Source: Rhodanobacteraceae bacterium
GTDB lineage: Bacteria > Pseudomonadota > Gammaproteobacteria > Xanthomonadales > Rhodanobacteraceae
NCBI GenBank assembly: GCA_036379495.1
Contig: DASVGO010000040.1
Coordinates: forward strand, 6,399-70,398
Reading direction: 5' to 3'
DNA length: 64,000 nt
Positions 15,054 through 23,449 of the stretch are shown here, piece by piece (position 1 is the stretch's first letter; the number at the start of each line of letters is the position of its first letter). The notes below the pieces were generated by a model, which was not told the DNA's origin, did no database searches, and was given only the letters and a program-made list of their open reading frames with translations. Both the position numbers and the translations under genes were made by a program.

Positions 15054-15268
15054 ACAGCATCATCCCGAATCGAAGAGCACGAACATAGCGGTGCCGTGCT
15101 GTACCGTCGCAAACCGCAAGCGTAATGCATGACCGTGTCCGAGCCAGCGCATGGACATGCCAATGACCACGCATGCAGCAACACGTCGGCAAGCGCCATG
15201 ACCTGCATCCACGACGTTGCCCGCATGCCTTATGCCATTCGACGCATGGCCTCATGTCGAAATAACGC

Positions 15269-15301
15269 TTGACAGCCCCCCCCCCCCACGGAATATATCG
15301 T
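15269..15301 (+). promoter_or_regulatory. Sigma70-like promoter with a C12 homopolymer in the spacer
   Basis: TTGACA (15269-15274), G, C12 (15276-15287), then GAATATATCGT with -10 candidates GAATAT or TATCGT; ~45 bp upstream of the HlyD start. Confidence 0.65.
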
Positions 15302-15346
15302 CAGCACCCTGAGGTTCGTTAGACGTTGTTCCCACGGAGTGGTGAC

Positions 15347-16615
15347 GTGAGCGATCTGTTTCGAGAGGAAGTCGTGCAGGCCCAACGCCCCCGCCTGTTG
15401 GGGACGATTCGCTTGGCCACGCCCATCTCGCACCAGCTTTGGGGCCTGTTCGCCGCGGTGTTCACCGCCGCCATCGCGCTGTGGCTGTACTTCGGCCATT
15501 ACACCCAACGCCAGCACGTCACCGGCACACTGGTGCCGCAAGCCGGCCTCTTGAACATCACCGCCCGCGCCTCCGGCACGGTGACGAAACTCGATGTGAT
15601 CCAAGGCGCGCATGTACGTGCAGGACAAGTGCTGCTGACTGTCAGCAGCGACCGCAGCAGTGCGGCCATGGGCAACACCTATGCCACCGTCGGCGCGCAA
15701 ATCAAGGCGCAGGAAACCCAAATCCGCGCGACACTGGCCGGGCTGGCGCCGCAAACGGCATCCCAGGCACGTGACCTGCGCCACCGTCTTGCCATGCTGC
15801 GCACCCAGCTGACACAAATCGATGCCCAGCAAACCCTGCAACGCAAGCAAGCCGCCACCGCCACGGACTTGTGGCACCAGGCCTTGCCGCTGCACCAGCG
15901 TGGCATCGTCTCCACTCTCGAATTCGACCAGTACAAGGATCAGGCCCTGACCCAGCGCGAGCAGGTCAAGGCGCTGGCCCGGCAGCGCTTGGACATCACC
16001 CAGCAACAGAGCAGTCTTGCGGCGCAACTGGCACAGTTGCCCATCGCCACCGCCGCCAAGGCCCATCAACTGCGCGGTCAGCTGGCCCAACTGGATGCCC
16101 AGCTGGCCCAAAACGATGTCGAACGACAATCGGTACTGCGCGCGCCGCAAGCCGGCACGGTGTCGGCTGTACTGATCCAGCCCGGCCAGACCGTCAACCC
16201 CGGACAGACCCTGGTGACGGTGATGCCCAAGGGTTCGGCGCTGCAAGCGCAATTGCTGGTGCCCAGCAGCGCCATCGGCTTCGTACATGCCGGCACCCAG
16301 GTCATCCTGCACTATCAGGCGTTTCCCTACCAAAAGTTCGGCGTGCAACATGGCACCGTCGCCAACGTCTCGCGCAGTGCGCTGACGCCGGCCGAGATCA
16401 CCCAGCTGCTGGGCCGCAGTCCGCCACCCGAGGCGCTGTACCGCGTCAAGGTGACCTTGGCCGCACAGAGCATCGAGGCCTACGGCAAGCGCCGCACCCT
16501 GCTGCCCGGCATGGCCCTGACCGCCGACCTGCTGCTCGATCGTCGCCGCATGATCGAATGGATTTTCGAACCGCTGTACGGCATGGCCAAGCGTGGTGAA
16601 GGGAAAGCGTCATGA
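15347..16615 (+). CDS. HlyD-family membrane fusion protein (CvaA/RaxA-like)
   Basis: GTG start with GGAG RBS; LFREEV, TM helix, coiled coil, LRAPQAGTV, YQAFPYQKFG, LLPGMALTAD..RRMIEWIFEPL. Confidence 0.93.
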   Translation: MSDLFREEVVQAQRPRLLGTIRLATPISHQLWGLFAAVFTAAIALWLYFGHYTQRQHVTGTLVPQAGLLNITARASGTVTKLDVIQGAHVRAGQVLLTVSSDRSSAAMGNTYATVGAQIKAQETQIRATLAGLAPQTASQARDLRHRLAMLRTQLTQIDAQQTLQRKQAATATDLWHQALPLHQRGIVSTLEFDQYKDQALTQREQVKALARQRLDITQQQSSLAAQLAQLPIATAAKAHQLRGQLAQLDAQLAQNDVERQSVLRAPQAGTVSAVLIQPGQTVNPGQTLVTVMPKGSALQAQLLVPSSAIGFVHAGTQVILHYQAFPYQKFGVQHGTVANVSRSALTPAEITQLLGRSPPPEALYRVKVTLAAQSIEAYGKRRTLLPGMALTADLLLDRRRMIEWIFEPLYGMAKRGEGKAS

Positions 16616-18861
16616 GTGCCTTCACCGAAGATGCCCCCATGGACGACGTCATCGCCGGCGGTCGCGGCGAAGTACCCGATGCCATCGCCGATGCACCCGA
16701 GCCTCGCCTGCATTTCGGCTGGGGCAAACGCCTGCCGATGATCCGCCAGAGCGAATCCGGTGAATGCGCGCTGGCGTGTCTGGCCATGATCGCGGGCTAC
16801 CACGGCCAGCATGTGGACCTGCCCAGCTTGCGCCGACGCTTTTCCACCTCGCTCAAGGGCACCACGCTCAACCGTCTGATCACCATCGCGCAAACGTTGG
16901 GTCTGGCTTGTCGCCCGTTGCGGCTGGAGATGGACGAACTGGCGCGCCTGCAAACACCCTGCATTTTGCACTGGGACCTCGACCACTTCGTGGTGTTGCG
17001 GCAAATACGCAAAGGTCATGCCATCGTGCATGACCCCGCGGTCGGCGCGCGCCGCCTGCGCCTTGCCGACGTCAGCCCGCACTGGACCGGTGTCGCCATC
17101 GAGCTCAGCCAAGGCCCGACCTTCAAGCGCAAGGCACCGCCACCGCCTGTGTCGTTGCGCACCTTGGCCGGCTCCATCGAAGGCTTGCCCAAGGCACTGA
17201 CCATCATCTTCAGTCTGGCCCTGCTGCTGGAATTGATCGAACTGCTGTGGCCGCAATTCCTGCAGATGACCATCGACCAGGTGCTGGCCGATGGCGATCA
17301 CAGTCTGCTGACCTTCCTGGGTTTGAGCTTTCTGGTGCTGCTGGCCATGCGCACCGTGGTGTCGGCGCTGCGCACGTGGACTGTGATGTGGCTGGGCACC
17401 CACTTCAACTTGAGCTGGACCGGCAACGTGTTCCAGCACCTGCTGAAATTGCCGCAGGATTATTTTCTCAAGCGTCACCTGGGTGACATCGTGTCGAAAT
17501 TCGGCGCGGTATCGGCCATTCAGCAAACCGTCACCACCCAGTTCGTCAGCGTCATCGTGGATGGCGTCATGGCCACCTTGACCCTGGCCGTGATGCTGAT
17601 CTACAGCATGACGCTGACCGGCATCGTGGCGTTGGCCGTGGCGATCTACGCCGTGACGCGCATCCTTTACTACCGCGCCTACTTCGCGTCGAATCTCAGC
17701 CAGATCACGGTACGCGCCAAGCAGCAGAGCGTGTTCATGGAAGCCGTGCGTGGCGTGCAAACCTTGCGCCTGCACAACCGCGGGCCGGCGCACACCTCGC
17801 GCTATCTCAATGCCGTGACCGACACGCTCAACATGTCGATCAAGGTGCAAAAGCTCAACCTGCTGTTCAGCTCGATCAGCGGTCTGACCAACGGCGCCCA
17901 GCGCATCGGCGTGTTGTGGTTGGGCGCGTACCTTGCCCTGGGTGGACACTTCAGTGCCGGCATGCTGATGGCCTACGTGGCCTATGCCGACCAATTCAGC
18001 AGCCGCGCCAACAGCTTGGTTGAATATCTGGTGCAGTTGAAACTGCTGCGCCTGCAGGGCGAACGCCTGGCCGACATCGTGCTGACCAACCCCGAAGCGC
18101 ACACCGAGGGCAATCGCGCCGGCCCGTTGCCGGAGCCTTCAGTCCGCTTCCACAATGTCAGCTTCCGCTATGCCCCGGGCGAACCGTACGTCATCAAGGA
18201 TGCCAGCTTCGCCGTCAAAGCCGGTGAGTCGGTCGTCATCACCGGTCCGTCCGGCGGTGGCAAAAGCACCTTGGTGCGTTTGCTGCTGGGCCTGCTTGAT
18301 CCGCAACAAGGCGACATCTTCATCGGCGATGTCAACCTCAAGCAACTGGGCAAACACACTTGGCGCGGCATGGTCGGTGCCGTGATGCAGGACGACACCC
18401 TGTTTGCCGGCTCCATTGCCGACAACATCAGCTTTCATGACGAAGCGGCAACGCAGGACAAGATCGAAGCCGCCGCCAAACTGGCGCAAATCCACGACGA
18501 CATCCTGGCCATGCCGATGGCCTATCACACGCTGGTCGGTGACATGGGCTCGGCACTGTCCGGCGGCCAGAAACAGCGTCTGTTTCTGGCGCGAGCGCTG
18601 TACAAGCAACCGCAGGTGTTGGTGCTGGACGAGGCCACCAGTCATCTGGATGTCGAGTGCGAACGGAAGATCAACGACACACTCAAGGCGCTGGACATCA
18701 CACGCATCGTGATTGCGCATCGACCACAGACGATACAGGCGGCCGAGCGCGTACTGGTTTGTTTCAAGGGAGTAGTGAAGGCAGTAACGCTGAAGGATGA
18801 TGAGCAGGAGTCGCAGGCCCGTCAGGCCATGGATGGAGCAATCGAGGTGGTAACTGACTGA
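16612..18861 (+). CDS. Peptidase-containing ABC transporter (C39, TMD, NBD; CvaB/RaxB-like)
   Basis: QSESGECALAC (catalytic Cys), HWDLDHFVVL, HDPA; GPSGGGKST, LSGGQKQR, LDEATSHLD. Confidence 0.95.
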   Translation: MSAFTEDAPMDDVIAGGRGEVPDAIADAPEPRLHFGWGKRLPMIRQSESGECALACLAMIAGYHGQHVDLPSLRRRFSTSLKGTTLNRLITIAQTLGLACRPLRLEMDELARLQTPCILHWDLDHFVVLRQIRKGHAIVHDPAVGARRLRLADVSPHWTGVAIELSQGPTFKRKAPPPPVSLRTLAGSIEGLPKALTIIFSLALLLELIELLWPQFLQMTIDQVLADGDHSLLTFLGLSFLVLLAMRTVVSALRTWTVMWLGTHFNLSWTGNVFQHLLKLPQDYFLKRHLGDIVSKFGAVSAIQQTVTTQFVSVIVDGVMATLTLAVMLIYSMTLTGIVALAVAIYAVTRILYYRAYFASNLSQITVRAKQQSVFMEAVRGVQTLRLHNRGPAHTSRYLNAVTDTLNMSIKVQKLNLLFSSISGLTNGAQRIGVLWLGAYLALGGHFSAGMLMAYVAYADQFSSRANSLVEYLVQLKLLRLQGERLADIVLTNPEAHTEGNRAGPLPEPSVRFHNVSFRYAPGEPYVIKDASFAVKAGESVVITGPSGGGKSTLVRLLLGLLDPQQGDIFIGDVNLKQLGKHTWRGMVGAVMQDDTLFAGSIADNISFHDEAATQDKIEAAAKLAQIHDDILAMPMAYHTLVGDMGSALSGGQKQRLFLARALYKQPQVLVLDEATSHLDVECERKINDTLKALDITRIVIAHRPQTIQAAERVLVCFKGVVKAVTLKDDEQESQARQAMDGAIEVVTD

Positions 18862-18915
18862 CAATCGCGCAACAAATGCCGTGTCGATTTTATTCATGCA
18901 CAGAAGGAGAACGTC

Positions 18916-19446
18916 ATGCGAGCGATAACCTTGGAAGAGATGTCAAAAGTAGCTGGTGGACTTCAAGTTAACGGTAGCGGTGGAATGCATGCTAATTTAA
19001 TCAAAGGCCCGAGTTCGCCCTATGATGGTCCGTCACCTCCTGGCACCAGTACACCATCAACGACCACAACGGAGGTCACGGGCATTGGCACCTCCTTGCT
19101 CGAAGAGCTTGATGCACGCATGGGTGACGGATTGCTTGGCGACGCTTTGTATATTACCGATGCCGCCCAAATAAGCGCAGGTATGGCAAGCGACACATAT
19201 GCATTCATGATTCATGGCTGCGAATTATGGGAGGCTAATGGGAATATGGATGGTTCACCAGTTGTGGAGCAAATGGGTACTGCATTTGACGTGAACATGA
19301 TAAATTGGTCGGCATACGATGATGGCGGTGCCGACAGTTGTGCAACAGCAATTGGCAACCTCTACCATTCCGTTTTTGCTGATCATCAGGCCATGTCCAT
19401 AAATCCTGCATGGGCCGCATCCCATAGCAAAAAAAATGGCACGTGA
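18916..19446 (+). CDS. Double-glycine-leader secreted precursor (large microcin/bacteriocin-like cargo)
   Basis: AAGGAG RBS; leader MRAITLEEMSKVAGG fits the class II microcin leader pattern; directly after the PCAT. Confidence 0.85.
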   Translation: MRAITLEEMSKVAGGLQVNGSGGMHANLIKGPSSPYDGPSPPGTSTPSTTTTEVTGIGTSLLEELDARMGDGLLGDALYITDAAQISAGMASDTYAFMIHGCELWEANGNMDGSPVVEQMGTAFDVNMINWSAYDDGGADSCATAIGNLYHSVFADHQAMSINPAWAASHSKKNGT

Positions 19447-19635
19447 TGGTAAAACAGGACTGCCTGCGCTCCCGCTTTGACCGTCCGAATCAGAGGTTGT
19501 GTCCATGGCGTGGCCAAGGAAAGCACGCTGCGCCATGTATCCACGAAATCGACCGGTGCAGGCAGGCATTCTTCGGTTGAGTTGGGGAATTCCCATATTT
19601 GTCTAAATCAAGCAATGCCTTGAAAGGAAGACATC

Positions 19636-20382
19636 ATGACACCTAGAAAACATATCTGTTTCGATATTTTGTCAGCCGTCGCTGGCAGTATATGTGCAGT
19701 TGTACTTGTTAACTCCATTTCACCATTGGTCCAGGCACATACTGTAGTTTCTAGTAACAGGTCTGCCAGTGTGAATTGCGCATCGTCACTGCAAGCAATG
19801 AAAGCATTCACTCTTGGCAACAAACGCATCACCGCATTTTCGAGTATGCGGCATGCATTGCTTGTTGATATCGCTAAAAATGATGTATCAAACGTGGCAA
19901 CATTGGTGAATCAATGGAAGCGTACCGAGTCGCCACTGGATATTCAGGAAGCGCTTCAATCAGGCCTGTCGATGGCATCTTCATTTGGTCACGTACAGAT
20001 GGTAAAAACACTTATCCGTCTTGGCGCTAAACCTGATACATGGACGAATCGGACCAACCGGAGCACAGCCATAGCCGACGCTGCGGCATGCGGTCATCTC
20101 AACGTGATCAAAGCAATACTTGCTGGCGGTGGTCATATCGACGCAAAAGGTGCAGTGTACGGTTCAATCGGGACATCCAATGCATTCGACGCGGCACTGG
20201 ACGGATTGCATCCCATAATCGCAATTTGGTTAGTACACCATGGATTTGATGTCTGCAAGAACGTTGCACCAAAAAAGCTTATAATGCTACAAAAACTTGT
20301 AAAATCACACCACATGCCCGACGAACTCCAGACAATGCTTGAATGTAGGCGGTTAGATGCAAGCATACATACTAACAAATAG
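19636..20382 (+). CDS. Exported ankyrin-repeat protein, putative immunity/accessory
   Basis: Hydrophobic N-terminus ending VQA; ankyrin-like units ASSFGHVQMVKTLIRLGAKPD, AAACGHLNVIKAILAGGGHID, AALDGLHPIIAIWLVHHGFDV. Confidence 0.75.
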   Translation: MTPRKHICFDILSAVAGSICAVVLVNSISPLVQAHTVVSSNRSASVNCASSLQAMKAFTLGNKRITAFSSMRHALLVDIAKNDVSNVATLVNQWKRTESPLDIQEALQSGLSMASSFGHVQMVKTLIRLGAKPDTWTNRTNRSTAIADAAACGHLNVIKAILAGGGHIDAKGAVYGSIGTSNAFDAALDGLHPIIAIWLVHHGFDVCKNVAPKKLIMLQKLVKSHHMPDELQTMLECRRLDASIHTNK

Positions 20383-20530
20383 AGCGACCTCTCTGCGAGG
20401 CAGTTCAGCCCGGCGTGGACTGTCTTTCTTCCCGGCGATCCCGGCCATCAGCCGCAGGCAACACTTACATGCCAAACCACGTTCATGGTCAATTAGGAAG
20501 GCCAGCCCCTGCTGTGACCATACAGGTAAT

Positions 20531-20824
20531 ATGTCACAAACTGGAATATCTCGTTCAGTTTCGATCATGTCGTTATTAGCAATGTGCGTGGCATCGCCCG
20601 CCGTTGCGCAACAGTATGTGGTGCCCACGCTACAGCAGCTGAAAAACTACAGGCCTGAGCACTTGAGTCCGGCCATCAGGCAATCATTGGCCACCCATTT
20701 CAGGCAAAGCTGCCTGAAACAGGCAATGGTTTGTGACCATGTCACCATCGATTTCACTAGCAATAATTCCGGTCGCAGGCATGATGTTCTCTACATCACG
20801 TTGTCAGACAGGAGAATTTTCTGA
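20531..20824 (+). pseudogene. Truncated 5' copy of the transglutaminase-like gene at 21958
   Basis: 97 aa; mature part nearly identical to the N-terminus of 21958-23244; stops just after the homology ends. Confidence 0.8.
20595..20810 (+). repeat. Direct repeat copy 1 (216 bp)
   Basis: Aligns without gaps to 22019-22234 (offset 1424); 9 mismatches by manual comparison. Confidence 0.92.
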
Positions 20825-21146
20825 AAAATTCAAGGGAGCAACCGAGTCGTCAACCTCGACGAGTTCTGGAACTCTGGCTCAATTCCCCACAGAGCAAGAA
20901 GGTCTCGATGCATTGGCTGATCTATTGGATCACAATTATGCAAATCAGTCCATATCGAACATCTTCACATCGCCTTCGCATCATTATACATCAACAGACC
21001 CTAATACTGAAACATCCAACGTCGAGGCTTACATGAACGCACACGGTTACTCGGACACCACAACGCCTGTCAGCCAAATGAGTGGCGCCGAGTTCAATAC
21101 ATTATTGAATGCCATATCCAAAGCCGAGGGCAACACTAACATTTAG
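20811..21146 (+). pseudogene. Headless C-terminal domain resembling a lysozyme-like toxin/virion domain
   Basis: GEFSEKFKGAT..LAQFPTEQEGLDALADLL..Y..SISNIF..NTETSNV..LLNAISKAEG; no credible own start. Confidence 0.55.
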
Positions 21147-21242
21147 AACTAACATCTTGTTACTTTAGATATATAGCAGAGCAGGCCGCATGCATAGTGC
21201 AGGCGGGCTGCGCAACGGCAATTATCGCATTGCGAGGTTGAC

Positions 21243-21719
21243 ATGAAAAACGTACGCTTTTGCCTTTCTGTCTTACTTGTACTGTCAGGCGCCTGCTGCG
21301 CAAATACTTCTTTGGCAAGTGATCCCAATGCCATAATGGTAGTTGGAAATCTTGTACCGAACATCAAAATCAGTGGATGGGTCAAATCATATACTTACAC
21401 GACACCCAAAGGAAATTCCATTTCCGTAACCTACATACATTCGATTACGCCTGTCGATTGGTACCCAGGAAAGGATCAACCAAACGTCAATATAGGATTG
21501 TATTTCTTTCCGCGGTTTCACGTATACGACATTCAGATTGACGCATTTCGCAAGGTCATGAATCATGTCAAATCGTTATCGCGTGGCGGCAAATGTATAA
21601 CGATCACAGGAACATTGAGCACCAACGAATTGCATGCGGCTCCAGCTGTAGGTCCTGAGTCTCTAAAAATCGCACCGTCAAAAATAACCGCATGCAATCA
21701 TTTAGTAATTCGCAAATAA
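21243..21719 (+). CDS. Hypothetical exported protein, putative immunity protein
   Basis: GAGG RBS; signal peptide MKNVRFCLSVLLVLSGACCANTSLA; AT-rich; follows the orphan toxin-like domain. Confidence 0.65.
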   Translation: MKNVRFCLSVLLVLSGACCANTSLASDPNAIMVVGNLVPNIKISGWVKSYTYTTPKGNSISVTYIHSITPVDWYPGKDQPNVNIGLYFFPRFHVYDIQIDAFRKVMNHVKSLSRGGKCITITGTLSTNELHAAPAVGPESLKIAPSKITACNHLVIRK

Positions 21720-21957
21720 TAATTATAAAGCGTTCCGCAGTACATAATCCACGCACATAGGCATTATCACAACCTCTCATGGATGATATTCAGTTTGTCG
21801 AGCCATGTCTCGGCATGCATGCGCGCTTCATCCGCATCATTGATATGTGACATTTTGTGCATGGATCCAATCACCAACGTTCTCCATGCATTATTCTGTA
21901 CGGCCGTCCAGCTGGTGCTTGGACGGATCCATGCCTTGTATCGAAATAGAGAACGAT

Positions 21958-23244
21958 ATGTCACACATTCGAACAATCCGCTCAGTGTCGATCGTGTTGT
22001 TATTGATGTGCGCGGCGGCGCCCGCCGTTGCGCAACAGTATGTGGTGCCCACGCTACAGCAGCTGAAAAACTACAGGCCTGAGCACTTGAGTCCGGCCAT
22101 CAGGCAATCATTGGCTACCCATTTCAGGCAAAGCTGCCTGAAACAGGCAATGGTTTGTGACCATATCACCATCGATTTCACGAGCAAGGATTTCGGTCGC
22201 AAGCATGATGTCGTCTACATCACGTTGTCAGACAAGAGTGCCGTCGACGCCTGGAACAAGTATCGAATGGAGATGATAAAACACCATCACAGCCGCGCTG
22301 ACATGTTGCATTTCAGCGCGAGCATTCGTGTCCGCGGGGAATCCGCGTGGAAAACGATTAACACGAACGCAAAATGTCCCTATTGCTTGCCAGCGGATGC
22401 GCTGAAATTCGATGATGGCCACCAATACCAAGTGAAATTCGATGCGCTGTATCGAATCAATCCGCATCCGAAGCATTCATTTTGGGGGCTTGCCGTACTG
22501 GTTGCAAGGCACAATCCAAGACGCCATGAGCCGGAACGCTATTTCATTGATGTCGAAAGCAAACATGGTCCTACCGTCTATGCATCAGTACGCACGCTTG
22601 GCAGCCACTACTTGCGATCAACTGCCGCGACGGGCCATTTCATCGTCATGCTGAACAGCAAATATGTGCAGACATATCGCCCTTCGTACGCCGTACTTTC
22701 ACTTTTGCCTTCGTGGCGCGCATTTGGTCACATGTATACGGATGCCGAACACTTGGCCAGCGCAGGATCACAGAATTTGCCAACGTTTCACGGCACACCT
22801 GAACAGATTGTGGGGGCAGCCGTGAACTACATGAAGTCGCTGCATATCAAATCCATTTGCCCTGATATTCGTGATGGGGGTGACATGCCGCATGATACAG
22901 TGTTCGAAATACTGTCAAGCCGCACCACAAGCTGCGCTGGTTCCATGACACTTTTGCGCGCATTGTTGCACAAATCAGGCGTCAATTCGGATCCAGTCCT
23001 GCTGAACTTCAACGGAATGCCGCCATTGAGTTTCAGCGTACCCGGTCCATTATTCGCCCGTCACGTCATCCTTTACATACCAGTCATGGAAAAATTTGTT
23101 GACCCACTGTTTGCGGGATCCAATCGCGATATCAGACTCCCACTCTCGCAGATCAAACTGACGTGGAAGAACGGTGCACGTTTGGCTTTCCCAGGATACG
23201 TGGGCTTCAACACCGTTACCGACAGTTTCATGGCGGTGCATTGA
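21958..23244 (+). CDS. Exported transglutaminase-like protein
   Basis: Signal peptide ending AVA; TSCAGSMTLLRALL (Cys), ARHVILYIP (His), FVDP (Asp) arrangement of TGase-like cores. Confidence 0.7.
   Translation: MSHIRTIRSVSIVLLLMCAAAPAVAQQYVVPTLQQLKNYRPEHLSPAIRQSLATHFRQSCLKQAMVCDHITIDFTSKDFGRKHDVVYITLSDKSAVDAWNKYRMEMIKHHHSRADMLHFSASIRVRGESAWKTINTNAKCPYCLPADALKFDDGHQYQVKFDALYRINPHPKHSFWGLAVLVARHNPRRHEPERYFIDVESKHGPTVYASVRTLGSHYLRSTAATGHFIVMLNSKYVQTYRPSYAVLSLLPSWRAFGHMYTDAEHLASAGSQNLPTFHGTPEQIVGAAVNYMKSLHIKSICPDIRDGGDMPHDTVFEILSSRTTSCAGSMTLLRALLHKSGVNSDPVLLNFNGMPPLSFSVPGPLFARHVILYIPVMEKFVDPLFAGSNRDIRLPLSQIKLTWKNGARLAFPGYVGFNTVTDSFMAVH
22019..22234 (+). repeat. Direct repeat copy 2 (216 bp)
   Basis: Matches 20595-20810. 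Confidence 0.92.
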
Positions 23245-23449
23245 GCGTAGCTGCTGCCCCGCGTGGTTACCTCGAACAGCGAGTCTGGCGCTTGCGCATG
23301 ATGCAAGGCACATCGTGCGCAACGTCATGTTCCATGGTTGCACCCATGACCAAGTTGACCAACGTTCACTCGCCTCAACGCCTGCCTTGACCATGCAGGC
23401 ATAATCACCCCCTTCCGTGGTCGCATGGGGGTGACCGCATACTGACGGC

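Follow-up and report, generated by a model that had tools for sequence, protein, structure and literature searches.

We analysed a stretch of 64,000 nucleotides from a Rhodanobacteraceae bacterium (GenBank assembly GCA_036379495.1, contig DASVGO010000040.1, positions 6,399 to 70,398), hereafter the window, which carries an inserted island encoding a HlyD-family adaptor, a peptidase-containing ABC transporter (PCAT) and a cargo protein with a double-glycine (GG) leader. The original prediction had regarded this island as a candidate phase-variable polymorphic toxin/immunity system exported by the PCAT. A check of open reading frames (ORFs) and domains, in which signal peptides were called by eye and from hydropathy, located every listed part, from the promoter tract through the transglutaminase-like gene, at the positions given below and on the + strand. 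The poly-C promoter, HlyD, PCAT, GG cargo, ankyrin partner and deletion relic were thereby confirmed as a real feature of one island.

15054..23449, no strand assigned: the whole insertion, between mrcB (PBP1B) and a glycosyltransferase gene.
15269..15301, + strand: predicted sigma-70 promoter, with TTGACA at 15269-15274, a G, twelve cytosines (C12) at 15276-15287, and TATATC at 15294-15299 or TATCGT at 15296-15301.
15347..16615, + strand: HlyD-family periplasmic adaptor of 422 amino acids (aa) (PF13437, E 4.6e-17; 79% identical to a paralog on contig C24 of the same genome).
16612..18861, + strand: PCAT of 749 aa (Peptidase_C39, E 2.8e-37, ABC_membrane and ABC_tran; 86% identical to the C24 paralog).
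18916..19446, + strand: GG-leader cargo of 176 aa, with a 15-aa leader, a Gly/Pro/Ser/Thr linker and a predicted helical domain of about 110 aa from an unnamed family.
19636..20382, + strand: ankyrin-repeat protein (Ank_2, E 3.6e-12) with a hydrophobic N-terminus and conserved cysteines.
20531..20824, + strand: 5′ fragment of 97 codons from a duplicate of the transglutaminase-like gene that a deletion has truncated.
20812..21146, + strand: headless ORF, the surviving 3′ part of a second GG cargo, which belonged to the NNPG family; leader and NNPG motif are missing and the conserved C-terminal Glu is kept.
21243..21719, + strand: protein of 158 aa whose N-terminus is hydrophobic and whose homologs are encoded after intact NNPG-type cargos.
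21958..23244, + strand: transglutaminase-like protein of 428 aa (Cys326/His369/Asp382) with a hydrophobic N-terminus.

The mrcB and glycosyltransferase genes are 8.4 kb apart in the source genome (2.15 Mb, 80% complete). This site was empty in relatives: of 18 other genomes searched within the genus, 17 had the two genes on one contig with a gap of less than 400 bp, and the 18th gave a partial match consistent with an empty site. The GC content is host-like in the transporter part (61-65%) and 45-53% in the cargo part. Kinship labels and named relatives point to a host in or near Rhodanobacteraceae. The sequencing run with this DNA is a soil metagenome, and no RNA dataset was listed as containing it.

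As in class II microcin loci, a PCAT with an intact C39 triad is encoded together with a membrane-fusion protein. The peptidase residues Q46/C52/H125/D141 are intact and have the spacing of Q22/C28/H101/D117 in RaxB (10.1101/442517). TolC had been expected to act in trans, which agreed with our results: none was seen among the window ORFs examined, and a TolC gene (TIGR01844, 339 bits, above the cut-off) was found on contig C56. HlyD homologs (E ≤1e-75) occurred in 93 of the 401 genomes of the family. At one locus with a close PCAT ortholog (L002, G009:C106), the cargo slot is filled by an element labelled by eye as IS3-like and an aspartyl-protease gene lies upstream.

A hidden Markov model (HMM) of the leader, seeded from loci of this analysis with the window leader included, matched two of the genome's 47,255 ATG starts, each immediately following a PCAT gene. 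By this model the cargo bears the GG leader of class II microcins; NCBIfam models gave no match. Single-sequence homolog searches with the window cargo and with the C24 cargo each returned only the query. A profile search with the window domain against 1.84 billion representatives gave 16 matches, namely the window protein, one repeat-protein artefact and 14 others, of which 10 had a clear GG leader and none exceeded 240 aa. Window-type cargos were found in the window, L073-L075 and L131, on separate PCAT branches, and in all five distinct loci with context the domain was adjacent to a member of the same ankyrin family, including its cysteines outside the repeats. The ankyrin gene is downstream of the cargo in the window and upstream in the other four. 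On this conserved adjacency, the ankyrin protein is the predicted cognate partner of the window cargo; PADLOC gave a single generic ankyrin match only. AlphaFold models were poor for both the window domain (predicted local distance difference test, pLDDT, 50) and the NNPG domain (pLDDT 55), and Foldseek and VIA-align searches with them found no credible match. The top VIA rows, helical subdomains of ABC ATPases with Z up to 8.7, were dismissed as a common arrangement. Sequence searches of the PDB had no matches and the ESM Atlas offered nothing usable for the window domain. In the cargos of L073-L075, L131, L194, P0003, P0004, P0007, P0009 and P0011, a Gly-rich tail leads to a conserved TVTVG-type motif at or close to the end of the protein; this could be an uptake signal at the C-terminus, a counterpart to the N-terminal linker found in other members.

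The related loci sampled were roughly the 60 best matches, 31 loci from metagenomes, the top 80 among 579 matches in the genome collection and some additional loci, a sample biased to the window's transporter. In PCAT trees (residues 41-480), the window group formed a clade of 20 of 100 rows with a Shimodaira-Hasegawa approximate likelihood-ratio test (SH-aLRT) support of 99, and of 41 of 178 rows with an SH-like support of 99. Its named members are Luteibacter, Rhodanobacter, Dyella, Frateuria, two Xanthomonas records and one Pantoea record, and 10 of the 22 genomes of one sister-family genus carry a clade PCAT. Cargos were called with the leader HMM seeded from the sampled loci, two being added by hand. 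Inside the clade, 28 of 32 cargos were 160-284 aa long, while outside it 130 cargos were called in 90 of 137 rows, 129 of them of 39-126 aa and one of 149 aa. Nine clade rows had no called cargo, some lying at contig ends and at least three having leaders that the HMM missed. Since clade kin are not independent, the link between this transporter and long cargos amounts to one evolutionary association and not to a statistical test. In L024 and L025, a clade PCAT is followed by a 118-aa GG cargo, a distant transglutaminase-like gene and two further genes, which we take to be acyltransferase-like and MchC-like. Verified class II microcin precursors measure 75-120 aa and two microcin screens exclude proteins above 150 aa (PMC9746304, PMC12219008), whereas the cargos of this genome have 176 and 218 aa; long GG cargos thus escape published screens that stop at 150 aa.

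The original prediction had proposed as a test whether orthologous loci join a constant GG leader to differing C-termini and differing downstream genes, and this pattern was seen at homologous loci across the PCAT clade. Most clade cargos consist of the leader, a low-complexity linker rich in Gly/Ser/Pro/Asp and a variable C-terminal domain. The two cargos of L119 are identical at 50 of 55 N-terminal positions, with z -0.3 for the last 100 aa; likewise, L119 and L129 (Pantoea) cargos share 37 of 53 (z -0.8), those of the neighbouring loci L053 and L055 18 of 22 (z -0.2), and those of L126 and L127 14 of 22 (z 0.1). C-terminal comparisons ranged from z -0.8 to 1.2, as against 8.6 and 29.7 for same-type controls. 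The C-terminal types include NNPG (C24, L113, L197, L199) and a related NNP form (L076, L118, L119, L211-L213), a family that recurs on separate PCAT branches (C24, L113, L197, L199 and L076/L118/L119). Zinc-peptidase-like ends with HELGH are present in L022 and L194 (DUF6782, E 5e-4, below the cut-off), beta-rich ends in L052, L068, L077, L096, L127 and others, and glycine-zipper or membrane-type cargos in L021, L053 and L129. The ends of L126 and L200 are presumably SLT-like and those of L076, L118 and L119 M15-like, labels given from sequence motifs; Pfam, PHROG and the phage records lent them no support.

Of the 30 tabulated cargos (eight rows of the table were corrected by hand), 29 have a neighbouring gene whose product shows a hydrophobic N-terminus or membrane helices, the exception ending 250 nt from a contig end. 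As in polymorphic toxins, a cognate partner stood beside each C-terminal type, and partner families mostly tracked the C-terminus. Partners resembling the inner-membrane immunity proteins of class II microcins were seen only in L021, L024, L053 and L129; those in the window combine soluble domains with a single hydrophobic stretch at the N-terminus.

Several clade loci carry further genes. Downstream of the beta-rich GG cargos in L052, L068, L070, L077, L096, L127, L128 and L133 lie genes for exported aspartyl proteases that are retropepsin-like and have two domains (three such genes in tandem in L068), with a possible processing or protective role. Several of these cargos end in an aromatic residue, like outer-membrane proteins. 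In the cargos of L076, L118, L119, L129 and L211-L213, the leader is followed by a common segment rich in His/Lys/Ala and by GGE/GGD repeats that vary in number, and the same loci carry genes labelled by eye as PRTase-plus-beta-propeller-like and 2OG-Fe oxygenase-like. In L021, L053 and L055, a sulfotransferase-like gene follows cargo and partner and the cargo linkers are rich in Tyr-Gly, which recalls RaxST/RaxX sulfation.

The headless ORF had been read as a toxin-like C-terminus and, with the small exported protein, as an orphan pair of the CDI (contact-dependent inhibition)/Rhs type. A paralogous operon on contig C24 (G000:C24:249-4560, L001, - strand) contains a C9 promoter, HlyD, PCAT and an intact 218-aa GG cargo. 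Because the C-terminal domain of this cargo is 50% identical to the headless ORF, the latter corresponds to the 3′ part of a former second cargo; it is indeed a cargo C-terminus, with the 158-aa protein as its cognate partner, and is likely a pseudogene. In contrast, the orphan-cassette reading failed: the ORF is fused out of frame to the transglutaminase-like start, lacks the NNPG motif found in four intact family members, and has no sequence in common with the expressed cargo, so that the homology by which such cassettes recombine into the expressed gene is absent. The duplicated gene start (20529-20814 versus 21956-22238) matches over 243 nt at 93%, and the headless ORF begins, in another frame, where this match ends. 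An assembly error at the junction was rejected, as it is spanned with 0 differences by a contig from run X1, possibly the run behind the assembly itself. The simplest history would be two units of cargo, partner and transglutaminase-like gene followed by a deletion.

The 158-aa protein matched the partners of NNPG cargos (hhalign 94%, E 1e-7) as the sole match among 19,355 genome ORFs, and each of the three intact NNPG cargos with flanking DNA was followed by a homolog of it, suggesting that it is a periplasmic inhibitor. One member of its family gave a weak DUF4431 match; the literature collection searched had no paper on DUF4431. In the C24 operon, the 250 nt between the cargo and the contig end hold no partner gene, so the window gene could be the copy protecting against that cargo. 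The 428-aa protein itself had no Pfam, NCBIfam or PDB match. A homolog 26% identical to it matched Transglut_core weakly (E 0.004, below the cut-off), with Cys326/His369/Asp382 aligned. In L055 a homolog directly follows a different GG cargo, and in the window the gene has no cargo of its own.

NNP-type C-termini matched phrog_873, annotated as endolysin, at E of about 1e-16 (best 1.5e-16), and two closer relatives of the relic did so at about 1e-3 (weakest 2e-3). They also matched 161 phage records, many annotated as a peptidoglycan transglycosylase or endolysin domain of an internal virion protein, which are annotations rather than assays. A search of longer proteins with the NNPG alignment, a weak test, found nothing. 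For the intact NNPG cargo of L199 and its partner, complex prediction scored 0.75 and the best control 0.00, with at least 90% of contacts reproduced and a partner pLDDT of at least 82. The mark applied is reached by 116 of 157 solved complexes and by 2 of 215 mismatches, counts roughly valid with the alignments used here. Residues 18-25, where the NNPGN motif ends, are part of the predicted interface. This model supports binding within the L199 pair, the pair to which it applies, rather than the window's own genes.

Regarding uptake, a TonB-box core pattern derived from the four TonB-dependent receptors of this genome occurred in 6 of 30 clade cargos, compared to a shuffle mean of 1.3 (2 of 1000 shuffles reached this count), and in 15 of 124 cargos outside the clade, where 20 were expected. 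A first TonB-like pattern was present in 8 of 32 clade cargos (shuffle mean 0.2) and in none of 124 outside, but as it was written after the cargos had been seen it is not counted as a test. Receptor-mediated import of clade cargos is a lead only.

The original prediction had also pointed to the homopolymer in the promoter. The window spacer measures 19 nt to TATATC and 21 nt to TATCGT, while the C24 promoter has the same layout with C9 and a spacer of 16 or 18 nt, so the window copy is predicted to be expressed at a low level. C12 is the sole C/G run of at least 10 in the 2.15-Mb genome and one of four of at least 9; two of these four lie in the spacers of both PCAT promoters and a third also follows TTGACA. 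A G9 run at G000:C28:15693, in the spacer of another TTGACA promoter-like site, is a further candidate slippage tract. A consensus scan limited to 16-18-nt spacers did not list the window promoter. Tract length differs between the paralogs (C12 and C9), and three other genomes have C7-C10. The tract is spanned with 0 differences, and without any length variant, by contigs from run X1, possibly the run from which this DNA was assembled; since contigs lose rare variants, this absence is no evidence either way. The poly-C spacer likely tunes or switches the operon, C12 being the predicted low state.

Altogether, these results make it probable that the island encodes an undescribed modular bacteriocin-immunity system built on a microcin-type exporter, whose partners would protect from the periplasm. 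From the proposed polymorphic toxin/immunity system on a PCAT exporter, the modular cargos, the cognate partners and TolC in trans are retained, and the swappable orphan cassette in the window is given up. The PCAT would remove the leader after GG, and the cargo would leave the cell by way of HlyD and the unlinked TolC; in the periplasm, the partner would act as an immunity protein that protects the producer. Several clade C-termini may attack peptidoglycan, NNPG by its homology to phage endolysin domains and the SLT-like and M15-like ends as judged by sequence motifs, and others may attack the membrane. More speculatively, the linker, which in some cargos has a TonB-box-like motif, could play the part that an unstructured segment has in the translocation of pesticin or colicin M. 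The intact pair of the window would then be the cargo at 18916 and the ankyrin protein, the second cargo having been lost by deletion and its predicted immunity gene left behind. We advance only tentatively the wider proposal of an undescribed polymorphic-toxin delivery class, in which a PCAT clade would cleave and export modular bacteriocins of 15-28 kDa (GG leader, unstructured import linker and a swappable cell-wall hydrolase, peptidase or membrane-active domain), with periplasmic immunity, uptake via TonB-dependent receptors and, in some hosts, a poly-C switch. Such a class would span Rhodanobacteraceae and the Xanthomonas and Pantoea records and would be invisible to screens stopping at 150 aa.

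Several observations weigh against a modular bacteriocin-immunity system and bear on the alternatives. Cargos could be secreted lytic or nutritional exoenzymes for predation or cell-wall scavenging, with periplasmic self-inhibitors, their variety reflecting slow enzyme gain rather than receptor-imported anti-kin bacteriocins. Several C-termini are hydrolase-like, and cargo sets are stable within one lineage: five loci of a sister-family lineage (L118, L119, L211-L213) carry an identical two-cargo set, so swapping is slow there, and the conserved N-terminal module with variable C-termini of polymorphic toxins was seen across the clade and not within this lineage. The TonB-like motif occurs in a minority of cargos, and the receptor-derived pattern misses both cargos of this genome. 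The relic subfamily matched the endolysin-like one modestly (hhalign 59%, E 9e-5), the terminal Glu being common to both, and two C-terminal types have more than one partner family, the M15-like (L076 versus L118/L119) and the two HELGH cargos. Nevertheless, glycine-zipper or membrane-type cargos with membrane partners occupy the same slot (L021, L053, L129), as in class II microcins, and both the one-to-one partner genes and the retained orphan partner, typical of conflict systems, speak against exoenzymes, which we consider unlikely. The poly-C promoter arrangement is not confined to the clade: TTGAC-poly-C preceded HlyD in 5 of 160 upstream regions, three beyond the two of this genome, and two of the five lie outside the clade.

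It is equally improbable that the window cargo is a modified-peptide precursor, a signal or a surface protein, with the ankyrin protein as chaperone or receptor and only some clade members as toxins. The window domain has no recognisable catalytic family or fold (no Pfam match below E 0.02, none in NCBIfam, PHROG or PADLOC, no clear PDB match) and conserves few residues of catalytic type. At related loci there are genes for putative modifying enzymes, such as the nucleotidyltransferase-like and 2OG-Fe oxygenase genes adjoining window-type cargos in genus g12, which fit precursor modification, and the aspartyl proteases after beta-rich cargos could be processing enzymes. However, the window island has no such modifying enzymes, it also holds an NNPG cargo relic with its predicted inhibitor, and the window domain moves relative to the linker yet keeps its partner. 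A third alternative, in which the cargos exceed the size that can be exported in one step and are released into the periplasm of the producer, to act there with their partners as an envelope toxin-antitoxin or remodelling pair, seems very unlikely. The Escherichia coli MccV exporter performs poorly with a 116-aa cargo, a length limit (PMC10231218) from which it follows that the long-cargo clade must differ, and no TolC gene was seen in the island. Against such release, an intact HlyD gene precedes the PCAT in the window and in the C24 paralog, TolC is in the genome, and long cargos go with a single PCAT clade of good support, in line with a transporter that has adapted to them.

Type I exporters have been divided into those for large cargos with C-terminal signals and those for leader-cleaved peptides below 10 kDa (PMC10231218). 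If the bacteriocin-immunity interpretation is correct, the clade would represent a middle class between them, microcin-type export would become a further route for polymorphic toxins, and a natural transporter would be at hand for asking what limits PCAT cargo size. Cultured soil bacteria would then also offer antibacterial domains and inhibitors that are as yet unstudied, and the DUF4431-like family would gain a first hint of its function.

Full-text literature searches, whose coverage excluded subscription journals and supplements that may list longer GG proteins, found no description of this combination. The system resembles class II microcins of the colicin V CvaAB-TolC type in its HlyD and C39-ABC exporter, 15-aa GG leader, unlinked TolC and adjacent partner gene, and some clade cargos are likewise glycine-zipper type with membrane partners. 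It differs in the length of the clade cargos, mostly 160-284 aa, in their frequently enzyme-like C-termini, and in partners that often have signal-peptide-like N-termini instead of membrane helices. Caulobacter CdzABCDI is reportedly a small two-peptide system with a type I-secreted glycine-zipper bacteriocin, for which we know of no enzyme-like domains. The Xanthomonas systems RaxSTAB/RaxX and PctAB also pair PCAT and HlyD in Xanthomonadales with the same catalytic spacing, but RaxX is a small sulfated peptide and the PctAB candidates have 92 and 75 aa, unlike the long clade cargos (10.1101/442517). With polymorphic toxins (CDI, Rhs, MafB) the clade shares a common N-terminal module, exchangeable C-termini, cognate downstream partners, tandem toxin-partner units and a relic C-terminus with surviving partner, although the relic here is a deletion remnant and not a recombination-ready cassette. 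The first 300,000 characters of the main text of the polymorphic-toxin survey by Zhang et al. (2012) contain no 'type I secretion', 'T1SS' or 'double-glycine'. The window system therefore stands apart from class II microcins in precursor size and membrane immunity, and from CDI/Rhs loci in the orphan cassette. By description, pesticin and colicin M have the same Gly/Pro/Ser-rich N-terminal segment, lysozyme-like activity domain and periplasmic immunity protein (Pim), and the clade linker resembles the unstructured translocation segment of pesticin (PMC3390615). The L127 cargo begins with DTIVV, compared to DTMVV in the pesticin TonB box. Pesticin, in contrast, has no dedicated exporter and a separate receptor-binding domain, and most clade cargos are without a clear TonB box. 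By analogy, the system may work like a class II microcin exporter with pesticin-like modular cargo.

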